Shown here one piece after another: positions 10,425 to 14,849 of a DNA stretch of 24,000 nucleotides; the stretch's first letter is position 1; each line of letters opens with the position of its first letter. Under the pieces are notes generated by a model that saw only the letters and a list, made by a program, of their open reading frames with translations, searched no databases and had not been told where the DNA came from. Origin of the DNA: Paratractidigestivibacter faecalis (GTDB lineage Bacteria > Actinomycetota > Coriobacteriia > Coriobacteriales > Atopobiaceae). The stretch spans positions 188,742 through 212,741 of the forward strand of contig NZ_QSNG01000001.1 in NCBI RefSeq assembly GCF_003416765.1, in the 5' to 3' direction. Position numbers and translations under genes: made by a program.

Positions 10425-11828
10425 GTGGGAGAGACGTCTTCGAGGCGGCAGATCGAGGCATACGTCAACGAGGTCTGGCCCGACTACCTGCGTGACCTGG
10501 AGTGCCTAGTTGCGGTTCCGAGCGTGGTCGACGAGTCCGCCTCGGCTCCCGGCGCCCCCTGGGGGCCAAGCTGCCGCGAGGCCCTGGACGTGGCGATGGG
10601 CATAGCCGAGCGCCAGGGGCTCATCGTGGGCGACTGCGATGGCGCCCTTGCCTACGGCGACCTTCCGGGCGAGACCGACGAGCAGGTTGCCACCATTGCG
10701 CACGTCGACGTGGTCCCGGCTGGCGAGGGGTGGGACGTCGAGCCCTTTGCCGTGACCCGCCGCGATGGCGTGCTTCTTGGACGCGGCGTGCTCGACGACA
10801 AGGGGGCTGCCGTGGCCTCGCTCTATGCCGCGGGCTACCTTGCCCGTCGCGCGGCGTCGGGCCGTCCCTTCCGCCGCTCCCTCAGGTGCCTTCTCGGCGC
10901 GTCCGAGGAGGCTGGCATGATGGACGTCCGCCGCTACCTCGCTAGCCACGAGCCGCCCGGCTTCCTGTTCACGCCAGATGCCGAGTTTCCCGTCTGCTGT
11001 GGCGAGAAGGGCTGCGTCAACGCCGAGGTTAGCCATGCCGTTGACCATACGGGCGTGATCGCTTCCCTGTCTGGTGGCGTGGCGAGAAACGCCGTTCCCG
11101 CCCGCGCCGAGGCCGTTTTGAGGGTGGACGCGCAAGGGCTGCCCGCGGCCGAGGGCGTGGACGTGGCCTCTGCCGGAGCAGGCGCCTCTCGGGTCATTGC
11201 CCATGGGGTCGCAGGGCACGCAGCAGAGCCGGCGGGCGCGACTAACGCAATAGGGGTGCTTGCGAACTACCTCCTGAGGCTTGGCTGCCTGGGGCCCTCC
11301 GAGCGCGAGTTTGTCTCCCTTTGCAAGAGGGCTGTTTGCGCGTGGGACGGCTCGGGCCTCGGGATTGAGGCGAGCGATGAGCTGTTTGGCCCCCTGACCT
11401 GCGTCGGAGGAATGCTCTGGACGCGGGAGGGGAGGTTTGCGCTGACCCTGGACGTTCGTCTTCCGGCCGCGGCCGGCGTGGAGAGCGTCTGCTCCGGGCT
11501 GGAGCGGGCCGGGTCCGAGCATGGCTGCGAGGTCCTCATAACCCACACGCGGCAGACCTTCTCGACAGATCCGGGCTCTGGGGAGGTTATGGCGCTTCGC
11601 CGTGCCTACGAGGAGTTCTCGGGCCGGGAGGCAACGCCCTTCGCCATCGGCGGGGGAACGTACGCCCACCACTTCCCCAGCGCCGTTGGGTTTGGGCCGC
11701 TTGACCGCTCCGAGCCCCTGCCGGACTGGGTCGGTCCGGAGCACGGCCCCAACGAGGGCGTTTGGGAGCATCAGCTCAAGCGTGCCCTGGCAATCTACAT
11801 CCGGGCCCTGGAGGGGCTTCTGGCCTAG
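10425..11828 (+). CDS. M20-family dipeptidase (PepV/Sapep-like)
   Basis: 'IAHVDVVPAGEGWDVEPF', 'GRGVLDDKGAAVASLYA' and 'GASEEAGMMD' are the metal-binding and catalytic motifs of M20A dipeptidases. Preferred start is GTG 10425 (SD agagggggag at 10407-10416, 8-nt spacing; 467 aa). The alternative ATG 10392 would overlap the regulator gene by 29 nt. Confidence 0.8.
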   Translation: MGETSSRRQIEAYVNEVWPDYLRDLECLVAVPSVVDESASAPGAPWGPSCREALDVAMGIAERQGLIVGDCDGALAYGDLPGETDEQVATIAHVDVVPAGEGWDVEPFAVTRRDGVLLGRGVLDDKGAAVASLYAAGYLARRAASGRPFRRSLRCLLGASEEAGMMDVRRYLASHEPPGFLFTPDAEFPVCCGEKGCVNAEVSHAVDHTGVIASLSGGVARNAVPARAEAVLRVDAQGLPAAEGVDVASAGAGASRVIAHGVAGHAAEPAGATNAIGVLANYLLRLGCLGPSEREFVSLCKRAVCAWDGSGLGIEASDELFGPLTCVGGMLWTREGRFALTLDVRLPAAAGVESVCSGLERAGSEHGCEVLITHTRQTFSTDPGSGEVMALRRAYEEFSGREATPFAIGGGTYAHHFPSAVGFGPLDRSEPLPDWVGPEHGPNEGVWEHQLKRALAIYIRALEGLLA

Positions 11829-11909
11829 CCGCCGCGCCGCCGGCCTAGCGGTCGGCGTTGCATTCTCGCCAGGCGAGAAGCGCCTGCGGCATTTCTGGCG
11901 AGTTTTGCC

Positions 11910-11992
11910 TTGAACCAAGTAGTTCAATTTTGTCGTGCTATAGTTGCCACAAGTTCAATTTCAAAGTTGAACTTCAGTCCTCAAATTGAACT
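11910..11992 (+). promoter_or_regulatory. AT-rich promoter/operator array upstream of the HTH-aminotransferase gene
   Basis: Extended -10 tgcTATAGT (11936-11944). Inverted repeat ttgaac-N6-gttcaa (11910-11927). 24-bp near-perfect palindrome aagttcaatttcaaagttgaactt (11951-11974). The 10-mer agttcaattt occurs at 11921 and 11952 and as its reverse complement aaattgaact at 11983, giving exact 31-nt spacing. Confidence 0.55.
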
Positions 11993-12008
11993 ACGGGAGA
12001 AGCACACG

Positions 12009-13550
12009 ATGGCACGGGAGACTTTCCAGACAAGACTCAAGAGGGCCATGGAGAGTGCCGGCCTCAAGCAGGTCGACCTCGTGCGCATTGCCGCCGAGCG
12101 TGGGGCCAAGCTCGGAAAGAGCCAGGTCAGCCAGTATGTCTCGGGCAAGGTCACGCCCCGAAGGGACGTCATGGAGCTCCTTGCCGGCGTCCTTGGGGTC
12201 ACGCCCCAGTGGCTTATGGGCGCCACGGACGCCATGCCTGACGAAGTCGCGCCCGCGGACGCCACGGCCGAGACCGCCGCGCCCCAAGCCCCGAGCACTT
12301 CTCGCCAAAAGACAACGGACCAAGGGAGCGTCACCATGCGAGAGTTCAAGAAGTCCAACAAGCTCGACAACGTCCTGTACGACGTCCGCGGCCCCGTGGT
12401 GGACGAGGCCGCCCGCATGGAGGAGGACGGTGCGCGCATCCTGAAGCTCAACATCGGCAACCCGGCGCCGTTTGGCTTCAGGGCTCCCGACGAGGTGGTC
12501 TACGACATGCGCCAGCAGCTCACGGACTGCGAGGGCTACTCGGACTCCCGCGGTCTCTTTGCCGCGCGCAAGGCCATCATGCAGTACGCCCAGCTGCGCA
12601 ACATCCCCAACGTGGACATGAAGCACATCTACACCGGCAACGGCGTCTCCGAGCTCATCCAGCTCTCCATGCACGCGCTCGTCGACGACGGCGACGAGGT
12701 GCTCATCCCCAGCCCGGACTACCCGCTGTGGACCGCCTGCGTCACCCTGGCCGGCGGCCACGCCGTCCACTACGTCTGCGACGAGCAGAACGAGTGGAAC
12801 CCTGACCTGGCCGACATGGAGTCCAAGGTCACCAGCCGCACCAAGGCCATCGTGGTCATCAACCCCAACAACCCCACGGGTGCCGTCTACTCCAAGGAGG
12901 TTCTGGAGGGCATCGTCGAGATCGCCCGCAAGCACCAGCTCATGATCTTTGCCGACGAGATCTACGATCGCCTGATTATGGACGGCTACCAGCACACCTC
13001 CATCGCCTCGCTCGCGCCCGACCTGCCGTGCGTGACGTTCTCCGGCCTCTCCAAGTCCCATATGATCTGCGGCTACCGCGTGGGTTGGATGGTGCTCTCG
13101 GGCAACCAGCGCTGCATGAGGGACTTCATCTACGGCGTCAACATGCTGTCCAACATGCGCCTGTGCTCCAACGTGCCCGCGCAGTCCATCGTCCAGACGG
13201 CCCTGGGCGGCTACCAGAGCGTCAACGAGTACATCCGCCCCGGCGGCCGCGTCTACGAGCAGCGCAACTACGTCTACGAGGCGCTCAACGCCATCGACGG
13301 CATTACGGCCGTCAAGCCCAAGGCGGCCTTCTACATCTTCCCCAAGATGGACGTCAAGAAGTTCAACATCACGGACGACGAGCAGTTTGCCCTTGACCTG
13401 CTGCACCAGAAGAAGATCCTCATCACCCGCGGCGGCGGCTTCAACTGGGGTGAGCCCGACCACTTCCGCATTGTCTACCTGCCGCGCATGGAGGTGCTCA
13501 GGGAGTCCATGGAGGACCTCGCGGACTTCTTCGCGCACTATCGCCAGTAG
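12009..13550 (+). CDS. XRE-family HTH domain fused to an AlaA/AlaT-type PLP-dependent aminotransferase
   Basis: Start moved to ATG 12009. Residues 1-~72 form an XRE HTH ('LKQVDLVRIAAERGAKLGKSQVSQYVSGKVTPRRDVMELLAGVLGVTPQWLMG'), followed by a ~35-aa Ala/Pro/Thr linker. From M110 ('MREFKKSNKLDNVLYDVRGP') there is a full aminotransferase: 'KLNIGNP', 'VVINPNNPTGAVY', PLP-lysine 'SGLSKSHMICGYRVGW'. One uninterrupted frame, 513 aa. Confidence 0.85.
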   Translation: MARETFQTRLKRAMESAGLKQVDLVRIAAERGAKLGKSQVSQYVSGKVTPRRDVMELLAGVLGVTPQWLMGATDAMPDEVAPADATAETAAPQAPSTSRQKTTDQGSVTMREFKKSNKLDNVLYDVRGPVVDEAARMEEDGARILKLNIGNPAPFGFRAPDEVVYDMRQQLTDCEGYSDSRGLFAARKAIMQYAQLRNIPNVDMKHIYTGNGVSELIQLSMHALVDDGDEVLIPSPDYPLWTACVTLAGGHAVHYVCDEQNEWNPDLADMESKVTSRTKAIVVINPNNPTGAVYSKEVLEGIVEIARKHQLMIFADEIYDRLIMDGYQHTSIASLAPDLPCVTFSGLSKSHMICGYRVGWMVLSGNQRCMRDFIYGVNMLSNMRLCSNVPAQSIVQTALGGYQSVNEYIRPGGRVYEQRNYVYEALNAIDGITAVKPKAAFYIFPKMDVKKFNITDDEQFALDLLHQKKILITRGGGFNWGEPDHFRIVYLPRMEVLRESMEDLADFFAHYRQ

Positions 13551-13820
13551 CGGGTCGCCCGGGGTCTCGCAGCCATCGGTCCACCCAGGCCGCCTCGCCG
13601 TCTGCCGGTGCGTCACGCACCTGTAACGGCGGGGCGGCTACATTTTTCCTACATGTCGGATTGCGCCCCCGCTCCGTGGCGGGCGTTTGGATTGCGGCGT
13701 TACTGTGTGCACGCACTTTGTCTACCTGCGGACTTGTTTCTGCAACGTAAACTTGTGAGCTTGTGAAGCGGCGCATGGTGCGCCGCGCTGTGAACGCCCG
13801 TGGGGCGCAGAAGGAGACGC

Positions 13821-14849
13821 ATGTCTGAGTACACCGAGAACGAGAACGTGATGGACGAGGCCCTGGAGGCCGCTGAGGAGACGGTCGAGGAGACCGAGGA
13901 GATCGTCGAGGCCGAGGAGGCTGCCGACGAGGAGACCGAGCAGGCCGAGGAGGTCGTCGCCGAGGAGCAGGACCGCGACGCCATCCTCTTTGACAAGGCA
14001 CAGCGTGCCGCCCGCCTTCTGCGCAACCGTCGCGACGCCATCTCCAAGGAGGCCGACACCAAGGCCGAGCGCATGAGCGACATGGTTCGTGCCCTCAAGC
14101 TCCTGGAGCTCAAGCCCAAGATGGAGCAGAAGGAGATGGCCGACCTGCTGGGCATGAGCCTGCGCGCCCTTGACGAGCTCATGGCCAAGGCCGAGGCCGA
14201 GGACCTGGTGGGCCGCATCGAGTCCGAGGAGGACGACAAGCGCAAGGTCGTCGTCTTCGCCGCCGAGGGCGCCGTCGAGGCTGCCGCCAACGCCAAGCCG
14301 GAGAAGGACCACTACGTCCCCAGCCTCTCTGACGAGAAGATCGACGAGATTTGCGCCATGCTCGACGAGATCATCAACCCGCTGACCGAGATGGGCCTGG
14401 ACAACGACCGTCGCGACGGCCGCGGTGGCTTCGGCGGCCGCGATGACCGTCGCGGTGGCGACCGCAACGGCTTCCGCGGCGGCGACCGTGGCGGCCGTGG
14501 CGGCTTCGGCGGCCGTGGCGGCGACCGTGGTGGCCGCGGCGGCTTCGGCGGCCGCGATGACCGTCGCGGCGGCGACCGTGGCGGCCGCAGCTTTGGCGAC
14601 CGTGACAGCCGTGGCGGCGACCGTGGTGGCCGCGGCGGCTTCGGCGGCCGCGATGACCGTCGCGGCGGCGACCGTGGCGGCCGCAGCTTTGGCGACCGTG
14701 GCGGCTACGGCAACCGTGGCGGCTACGGCGACCGTGGCGACCGTGGTGGCTACGGCGGCCGTGACAGCCGTGGCGGCGACCGTGGCGGTCGTGGCGGCTA
14801 CGGCTCCCGTGGCGGCTACGGCAACCGCGGCGGCTACAACCGCGACTAG
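13821..14849 (+). CDS. Hypothetical protein: acidic N-terminal tract, MarR-like wHTH-looking core, C-terminal RGG/RGGF/RGGY repeat tail
   Basis: ATG 13821 with SD aaggag (13811-13816); 342 aa. Residues 1-~52 are about 60% Glu/Asp. The core 'MVRALKLLELKPKMEQKEMADLLGMSLRALDELMAKAEAEDLVGRIESEEDDKRKVVVF' follows the MarR wHTH pattern by eye. Residues ~194-342 contain 23 RGG triplets by my count. A canonical terminator follows. The frame is supported by G/C-dominated third positions and the SD. Confidence 0.75.
   Translation: MSEYTENENVMDEALEAAEETVEETEEIVEAEEAADEETEQAEEVVAEEQDRDAILFDKAQRAARLLRNRRDAISKEADTKAERMSDMVRALKLLELKPKMEQKEMADLLGMSLRALDELMAKAEAEDLVGRIESEEDDKRKVVVFAAEGAVEAAANAKPEKDHYVPSLSDEKIDEICAMLDEIINPLTEMGLDNDRRDGRGGFGGRDDRRGGDRNGFRGGDRGGRGGFGGRGGDRGGRGGFGGRDDRRGGDRGGRSFGDRDSRGGDRGGRGGFGGRDDRRGGDRGGRSFGDRGGYGNRGGYGDRGDRGGYGGRDSRGGDRGGRGGYGSRGGYGNRGGYNRD
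14512..14700 (+). repeat. In-frame tandem duplication within the RGG tail coding region
   Basis: 14512-14604 and 14608-14700 are identical over 93 nt (period 96 nt = 32 codons, 'GGDRGGRGGFGGRDDRRGGDRGGRSFGDR'). A diverged third copy of the GGFGGRDDRRGGDR core lies at ~14425-14466. The whole span 14400-14846 is a degenerate GGC/CGT/GAC repeat. Confidence 0.95.

Follow-up and report, generated by a model that had tools for sequence, protein, structure and literature searches.

A phage-repressor-type DNA-binding head on the AlaA-type aminotransferase of Paratractidigestivibacter faecalis, with a probable internal start and a candidate operator array

Organization of the HTH-AlaA gene

We analysed a stretch of 24,000 nucleotides (nt) from Paratractidigestivibacter faecalis (contig NZ_QSNG01000001.1, positions 188,742 to 212,741 of the forward strand; hereafter the window, whose own numbering is used throughout), in which one gene joins an XRE-type helix-turn-helix (HTH) domain to an alanine aminotransferase of the AlaA type. 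The gene runs from the ATG at 12009 to the stop at 13550 as a single frame without an internal stop codon, and encodes 513 amino acids (aa). The gene, its parts and its two putative translation starts, each with a Shine-Dalgarno (SD) sequence, are as follows (PLP, pyridoxal 5'-phosphate).

11995-11999, plus strand: SD sequence of the long isoform, GGGAG, 9 nt 5' of ATG 12009; read from the sequence, with GGAG at the equivalent place in orthologues
12009-13550, plus strand: whole gene, long isoform of 513 aa (HTH, linker and AlaA); from the open reading frame, Pfam and orthologue matches
12009-12224, plus strand: XRE/Cro-C1 HTH, aa 1-72, of the phage TP901-1 CI N-terminal-domain type, with the recognition-helix region KLGKSQVSQYV; from Pfam, PDB matches and AlphaFold2 (AF2)
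12225-12335, plus strand: disordered linker rich in Ala, Pro and Thr, aa 73-109; from AF2 and orthologue variation
12322-12328, plus strand: putative internal SD sequence AAGGGAG, 7 nt 5' of ATG 12336; read from the sequence, with orthologue conservation
12336-13550, plus strand: proposed short isoform, a stand-alone AlaA-type aminotransferase of 404 aa; M110 corresponds to Met1 of AlaA and to the starts of unfused orthologues
13053-13055, plus strand: codon of K349, the presumed PLP Schiff-base lysine, residue 240 counted from M110; from invariance and colinearity with 4CVQ

The original prediction, made from the letters of the window, had placed an XRE HTH, a linker and an aminotransferase in one frame, had let the aminotransferase begin at M110 with 404 aa and intact catalytic motifs, and had noted AAGGGAG at 12322-12328 with a 7-nt spacer before ATG 12336. 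All of this is borne out, the layout by the reading frame and Pfam, and the enzyme by the alignment to 4CVQ, its motifs and its invariant residues. The label "bifunctional HTH-domain containing protein/aminotransferase", given in the original prediction, was not confirmed, as the phrase was in no paper that we found. Databases name the protein "aminotransferase class I/II-fold PLP-dependent enzyme" or "alanine-synthesizing transaminase", and the label "aminotransferase class I/II" for such a gene would conceal a regulator. Our literature search found no description of an XRE-AlaA fusion.

Distribution and reality of the fusion

With the HTH alone as query, GTDB species genomes gave 381 loci, of which the best 80 were examined. 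These 80 belong to Coriobacteriia (Collinsella, Olsenella, Enorma, Atopobium, Slackia, Eggerthella and others), and all of them that are not clipped by a contig end carry the HTH fused to an aminotransferase. Nearly every genome of the genus, and several further families of the order, contain full-length matches free of stop codons. In genome G005 the HTH and the enzyme seemed to be split, but the break is a stretch of N in its assembly. When 250 genomes were sampled evenly across the phylum, 11 fused genes were found, all inside the order of the window, while 19 other genomes carry unfused orthologues with 45-57% identity that start at query residues 93-113. No fusion was found in Bifidobacterium or other Actinomycetota of this sample, where the orthologues are unfused. 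The balance of fused and unfused orthologues, which the original prediction had raised as a question, is one of fused genes within the order and unfused genes elsewhere in the phylum sample. A sequencing-derived fusion of two genes, which it had considered as an artefact, is excluded, with the frame uninterrupted in all complete orthologous loci examined. Judged by this comparison, the fusion is real and old.

The aminotransferase body

Pfam assigns Aminotran_1_2 (PF00155) to aa 144-492 (E 1.2e-51), and the nearest solved structure is E. coli AlaA (PDB 4CVQ; E 4.7e-165, 553 bits, gapless). Query residues 110-513 pair with residues 27-430 of the 4CVQ chain, and chain residue 27 comes right after the tag. 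This gapless alignment identifies M110 as Met1 of AlaA and gives the two proteins a common C-terminal end. The motifs NPNNPTG and SKS are present in the 513-aa protein. In an alignment of 32 orthologues reaching down to about 65% identity, K349, N288, D316, Y319, R357 and R487 are invariant; we take K349 to be the Schiff-base lysine and the other five to be the PLP- or carboxylate-binding positions of class I aminotransferases. The gene is the sole AlaA-like gene of the genome, the remaining aminotransferases being at most 29% identical. The colinear 404-aa body, the invariant catalytic residues and the lack of a second AlaA in the genome indicate that the enzyme function is under selection, and the protein is apparently catalytically competent and the working alanine aminotransferase of the organism.

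A different N-terminal addition was seen in P0234 (626 aa), from the search of representative sequences, in which an AlaA-like aminotransferase carries a DivIVA domain (PF05103, E 1.4e-17) in place of the HTH.

The DNA-binding head and linker

At the N-terminus Pfam finds HTH_3 and HTH_31, the former (PF01381) at aa 10-69 with 26.8 bits against a gathering cutoff of 23, and no GntR domain (PF00392). Comparison with the PDB matched the HTH to the CI repressor of the lactococcal phage TP901-1 (3ZHM, 5A7L, 6TRI) and to the 434 repressor. The nearest solved homologue is the N-terminal domain of TP901-1 CI (E 1.5e-14 with a profile and 1.2e-09 with the single sequence, 66 residues aligned), and the recognition-helix region reads KLGKSQVSQYV here and KLSKSTLSQYV in TP901-1 CI. 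In the AF2 model, which is of the monomer, the HTH forms five helices within residues 6-69 with a predicted local distance difference test score (pLDDT) of about 95, and the aminotransferase body is of moderate confidence (mean pLDDT 71). Linker residues 78-108 have pLDDT below 40. Among orthologues the linker is hypervariable, being about 24-113 aa long with a sequence that cannot be aligned.

Within the 90%-identity cluster of P0001 the members have 467, 501, 513 and 600 aa, which suggests linker-length polymorphism or differing start calls among very close strains.

The internal start

An SD followed by an internal ATG is by itself unremarkable in this genome, where a 5-mer SD stands 5-9 nt before 1.8% of all internal in-frame ATGs. 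The orthologues were therefore compared with a strict definition of the SD as AGGAG, GGAGG or GGGAG, 4-10 nt 5' of an ATG. An ATG lies at the AlaA start or within a few codons of it in 69 of 71 unique orthologues. A strict SD precedes the AlaA-start ATG in 56 of the 71 (79%), compared with 3 of 1011 (0.3%) for the other in-frame ATGs of the same genes. Aligned at the AlaA-start ATG, the 69 unique orthologues show the consensus A-A-R-G-G-A-G from -14 to -8, with purines making up 96-100% at -13 to -8, whereas next to no sequence information is left between -30 and -16. At the protein level, 47 different pentapeptides precede the Met (QGS, QRS, KGS, PRS, KEG, PKG and others). As the AARGGAG stretch is encoded by so many peptides amid a hypervariable linker, the constraint acts on the nucleotides and not on the protein. 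Where the Met is displaced by 2-4 codons, the SD is displaced too (L050/55/69, L085, L090/92, L091/105 and L093). Predicted mRNA structure, expressed per 40 nt, drops to between -3.3 and -5.4 kcal/mol from -30 to +30 of the internal ATG, compared with a gene mean of -8.2 and with about -11 to -12 kcal/mol in the region 5' of the internal start.

Conservation of the SD and ATG across the orthologues is thus far beyond chance, and the internal start is very probably functional in most lineages, this one included. The two isoforms of the original prediction, a DNA-binding enzyme and a free enzyme, are supported by strong comparative evidence, namely the conserved and co-displaced SD and ATG, the drop in mRNA structure and the 0.3% rate at control codons.

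The same elements could be read in another way, in which only the long protein is made and the SD-like run and the Met are a relic of the ancestral junction (a regulator gene, an intergenic ribosome-binding site and alaA), or a pause site that allows the HTH to fold before the enzyme emerges. M110 lies exactly at the ancestral Met1 of AlaA, as expected if loss of a stop codon made the fusion, and a lineage that has lost the SD and the ATG has no AlaA besides this one. A relic, however, should decay like the unalignable linker, and the SD instead shows at least 96% purine at six positions in the 69 orthologues. It is also encoded by many peptides and shifts together with the ATG, its rate of 79% stands against 0.3% at the control Met codons, and the low mRNA structure at the site suits an initiation region. 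We consider a relic or pause site quite unlikely.

The promoter region and candidate operator array

Analysis of the 75 bp 5' of the gene revealed four 11-mers with at most 1 mismatch to AAATTGAACTT or its complement, and an extended -10 box between the first two.

11920-11930, minus strand: candidate operator site a, TAGTTCAATTT, 1 mismatch to the reverse complement of AAATTGAACTT, overlapping the -35 region
11936-11944, plus strand: putative extended -10 element TGCTATAGT, with the predicted transcription start near 11951; from sequence reading and orthologue layout
11951-11961, minus strand: candidate operator site b, AAGTTCAATTT, a perfect match, at the predicted transcription start
11964-11974, plus strand: candidate operator site c, AAGTTGAACTT, 1 mismatch, a near-palindrome with site b
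11983-11993, plus strand: candidate operator site d, AAATTGAACTA, 1 mismatch, in the leader directly 5' of the first SD

The distance from site a to site b is 31 bp and from b to d 32 bp, each close to three turns of the helix. The genome (2.1 Mb, 65.5% G+C) holds 9 sites with at most 1 mismatch, and the 4 in 11920-11993 form the sole cluster. The five others are single, unclustered near-consensus sites inside long open frames; we took them as chance and rejected a wider regulon built on them.

Comparison of the orthologues revealed the candidate motif 5' of every one, usually in three copies. Across 68 orthologues the mean number of candidate sites per 220 nt is 2.9 upstream and 0.06 in coding sequence, and the centre-to-centre spacings peak at about 11, 20-21, 30-32 and 42-43 bp, which are multiples of the helical turn. 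The recurring layout consists of a reversed site, 5-7 nt, an extended -10 box and forward sites as far as the SD, with the consensus aGTTCAAttt, 5-7 nt, TGnTAnAgT; TGnTAnnnT stands between sites in 60 of the 68. In each of five other genomes from four families, exact 9-mers cluster only at the orthologue. The leader has no match in Rfam, and its folding is not more stable than that of shuffled sequence (z 0.11), so an RNA element in the leader was ruled out and the repeats are read as protein sites.

The right half-site of the TP901-1 OR operator is AGTTCACG (PMC7250872). Written in the same strand sense, the motif here is AGTTCAAT, and the two have the core AGTTCA in common. The sites are assigned to this HTH because its homology to TP901-1 CI and the motif agree, and the homology was not used in finding the motif. 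The original prediction had proposed that the full-length protein binds DNA in 11900-12010, and a phased, genome-unique candidate array lies exactly there, so that putative autoregulation is well supported by the comparison.

Candidate sites within the gene bear on whether the short product could come from a separate internal promoter and transcript rather than from internal initiation on the full-length mRNA. In genome G270 (L107:1420-1470, minus strand), two more AAATTGAACT sites lie in the linker-coding region directly 5' of the internal SD (GAGGAG) and ATG, copying the layout at the first start and translated twice as "EIEL"; they could be an auxiliary looping operator or an internal regulatory region. 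One linker site each was also found in L078 and L085. These sites speak for an internal promoter, yet they occur in only 2 of the 71 orthologues of the set, plus G270. No promoter-like element was found in 12009-12336, and a linker this variable could not hold a conserved promoter. We regard a separate internal transcript as highly improbable.

The operator core AGTTCAA also recurs at 12343-12349, 7 nt 3' of the internal ATG, within R-E-F-K codons. It is kept in most orthologues, and E, Q or K there always has a G-ending codon. This occurrence may be explained by protein conservation together with G+C-rich codon bias, and it was not counted as a site.

Proposed mechanism

The gene has the architecture of a trigger enzyme, as an intact catalytic domain and a DNA-binding domain share one chain and candidate sites lie at its own promoter. 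We consider it probable that the protein is an autorepressing trigger enzyme with a long product (repressor and enzyme) and a short product (enzyme only). From the features described above we infer DNA binding, repression, internal initiation and heterodimer titration, arranged as follows. The long form would be translated from ATG 12009 and would dimerise through the aminotransferase body as AlaA does, giving two tethered HTHs. By binding the AAATTGAACTT-type sites in 11920-11993, which span the -35 region, the transcription start and the leader, these HTHs may repress their own promoter. No other cluster of such sites exists in the genome, and the regulon is therefore probably this gene alone. 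Ribosomes would also initiate at the internal SD and ATG and produce a head-less AlaA of 404 aa, the short form presumably providing most of the enzyme. Short chains would pair with long chains, so that few two-headed dimers are left, and one-headed dimers would probably bind poorly. If mixed dimers do bind poorly, the fraction of two-headed dimers, and not the total protein, would set repression. The promoter would in this way sense the abundance of the enzyme without the repressor level equalling the enzyme level, which would reconcile a high enzyme level with a repressor role.

A more elaborate form of this feedback is put forward tentatively. The feedback would be ratiometric: head-less enzyme would pair with the long form, rare two-headed dimers would bridge the phased sites, and the substrate-driven movement of AlaA from open to closed might alter how the heads are presented. 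The long, variable and disordered tether makes tight allosteric coupling less likely.

Several observations weigh against the autorepressing enzyme with two products. The lineage L018/L101 (genome G024) has neither the ATG nor the SD at the junction and no second AlaA. In that lineage, since the junction elements and a second AlaA are absent, the long form alone appears to be enzymatically sufficient, so that not every lineage requires the short form. In two or three further orthologues the SD is only weak. Because the orthologues share descent, they stand for fewer independent cases than their number suggests. The phasing of sites a, b and d does not extend to site c. A strict scan of 11700-13800 for sigma-70 -35 and -10 elements found no promoter, and the promoter is therefore called from the conserved extended -10 box. 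NF006230 (PRK08363), the top-scoring NCBIfam equivalog for alanine aminotransferase, stays at 350.6 bits, below its cutoff of 534. This score is weak evidence against AlaA membership, as none of the listed NCBIfam models was shown to rest on E. coli-type AlaA, and we read NF006230 as built on a different lineage. The sequence reveals no signal that would relieve repression.

Alternatively, the protein could be mainly a metabolite-sensing one-component regulator in the manner of MocR or GabR, a reading that is compatible with two isoforms. Occupancy of the aminotransferase body by alanine, pyruvate, glutamate, 2-oxoglutarate, or PLP or pyridoxamine 5'-phosphate would change HTH geometry and, through it, DNA binding, and the enzyme output would be secondary. 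The layout of an HTH with a fold-type-I aminotransferase resembles that of MocR regulators, pdxST lies about 3 kb from the gene, and candidate autoregulatory sites are present. Against this, the body is a 404-aa colinear AlaA orthologue with invariant catalytic residues and the only AlaA of the genome, and a disordered, hypervariable linker of 30-110 aa would be a poor allosteric transmitter. The genome holds no other target cluster, and pdxT adjoins the gene in only 2 of the loci checked, with short flanks. Such a regulator is unlikely in our judgement.

Alanine aminotransferase connects pyruvate with nitrogen metabolism, and to our knowledge the control of its level is poorly known outside E. 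coli. In a whole class of bacteria that are abundant in the human gut (Collinsella, Olsenella, Slackia, Eggerthella and relatives), this control appears to rely on a repressor-headed enzyme together with a head-less copy from the same mRNA. In the ratiometric form put forward tentatively above, an abundant housekeeping enzyme would report its own concentration to its promoter, and alaA transcription would answer alanine, pyruvate and glutamate status directly, without a separate regulator. With similar HTH-enzyme fusions in Psychrobacter, this may be a general and unrecognised mode of controlling enzymes of central metabolism. Confirmation of a repressor-headed enzyme with a head-less copy would add a new architecture to the few trigger enzymes and provide a natural case of isoform-based tuning in an autoregulatory loop, and the operator, tethered HTH and dimeric enzyme would constitute a compact, portable module.

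Comparison with known systems

The protein resembles the MocR regulators (GabR, PdxR, TauR) in having a DNA-binding head, a linker and a dimeric PLP fold-type-I body. MocR regulators often autoregulate and bind repeated sites near their own promoters, as is proposed here. The MocR head is a GntR winged HTH, whereas the head here is an XRE/Cro-C1 HTH (PF01381); the protein thus falls outside the MocR definition, although it has the fold-type-I body (PF00155). The body also differs, being a true AlaA orthologue with a canonical start and not a specialised effector-binding domain. We know of no MocR counterpart of the conserved internal start.

In TP901-1 CI, an N-terminal domain on a flexible linker is joined to a dimerising body, and half-sites are bound cooperatively (PMC4941734). 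The protein here shares with it a homologous HTH with a near-identical recognition-helix region, the AGTTCA core, the tethering of this HTH to an oligomerising body by a flexible linker, and multiple operators, which are candidates here. It lacks the helical oligomerisation domains CTD1 and CTD2, in whose place the AlaA enzyme stands. Neither a prophage context nor a MOR-like gene was seen among the neighbours of the HTH-AlaA gene, and the sites here comprise direct and inverted repeats with variable, phased spacings.

Comparison with the glutamate-pyruvate aminotransferase AlaA of E. coli (YfbQ, 4CVQ) showed 404 residues colinear from Met1 to the C-terminus, with the PLP lysine and the active-site positions kept; E. 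coli AlaA differs in having no DNA-binding domain. E. coli alaA is regulated in trans, by Lrp. PutA and BirA are trigger enzymes in which one polypeptide is both a metabolic enzyme and a repressor of its own gene or operon. They use other folds (ribbon-helix-helix, winged HTH), have a defined ligand or redox switch, and are not known to form an enzyme-only isoform from an internal start. The likeness lies in the combination of enzyme and own-gene repressor in one chain, as proposed here, and the difference in the other DNA-binding folds and other enzymes. In the transposase and inhibitor of Tn5, an in-frame internal start yields a short form that keeps the dimerisation body, lacks the DNA-binding N-terminus and can thus dilute the active species. 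These proteins are unrelated, and the analogy is one of logic only, with heterodimer titration being putative in the present case.

The Psychrobacter fusions

A second fused protein from the search of representative sequences, P0127 (49% identical), led to a large Psychrobacter family (P0127, P0300-P0418; loci L108-L110). Its members resemble the protein of the window in joining HTH_3/HTH_19, a low-complexity linker and AlaA in 516-588 aa, with repeated palindromes 5' of the gene. Their HTH is only about 20% identical to the HTH here and is nearest to P22 C2, not to TP901-1 CI. The palindrome ATGCAAG, 6 nt, CTTGCAT occurs upstream in two or three copies (L108:2349-2423, L109:2365-2428, L110:2361-2439) and is a candidate operator different from that described above, paired with a different HTH on the same enzyme. 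No clear internal SD was found in the Psychrobacter fusions.

In a maximum-likelihood tree of the aminotransferase domains, each fused group forms a clade (support 98) and the two groups are not sisters. An independent origin of the Psychrobacter family was not adopted, as the best tree separates the fused clades but the approximately unbiased test does not reject joining them into one clade (p 0.169). Phage-repressor-type heads on AlaA occur in two phyla, from one event or two. One Psychrobacter genome also carries a MocR-type gene (GntR and Aminotran_1_2; L110:777-2231) directly 5' of the XRE-AlaA fusion.

Neighbouring genes

In the window, the neighbourhood of the HTH-AlaA gene comprises a phosphotransferase system (PTS) operon, a MarR-like gene and pdxST. 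Neighbours were compared across 106 loci with short flanks only; the upstream neighbour is common to 3 loci, and pdxT adjoins the gene in 2 only. No functional tie to the upstream PTS operon or the downstream pdxST was drawn from the few loci that keep these neighbours within the short flanks. The MarR-like downstream gene (13800-14849) stays beside the HTH-AlaA gene in 19 of the 106 loci, mostly in Collinsella and close relatives.

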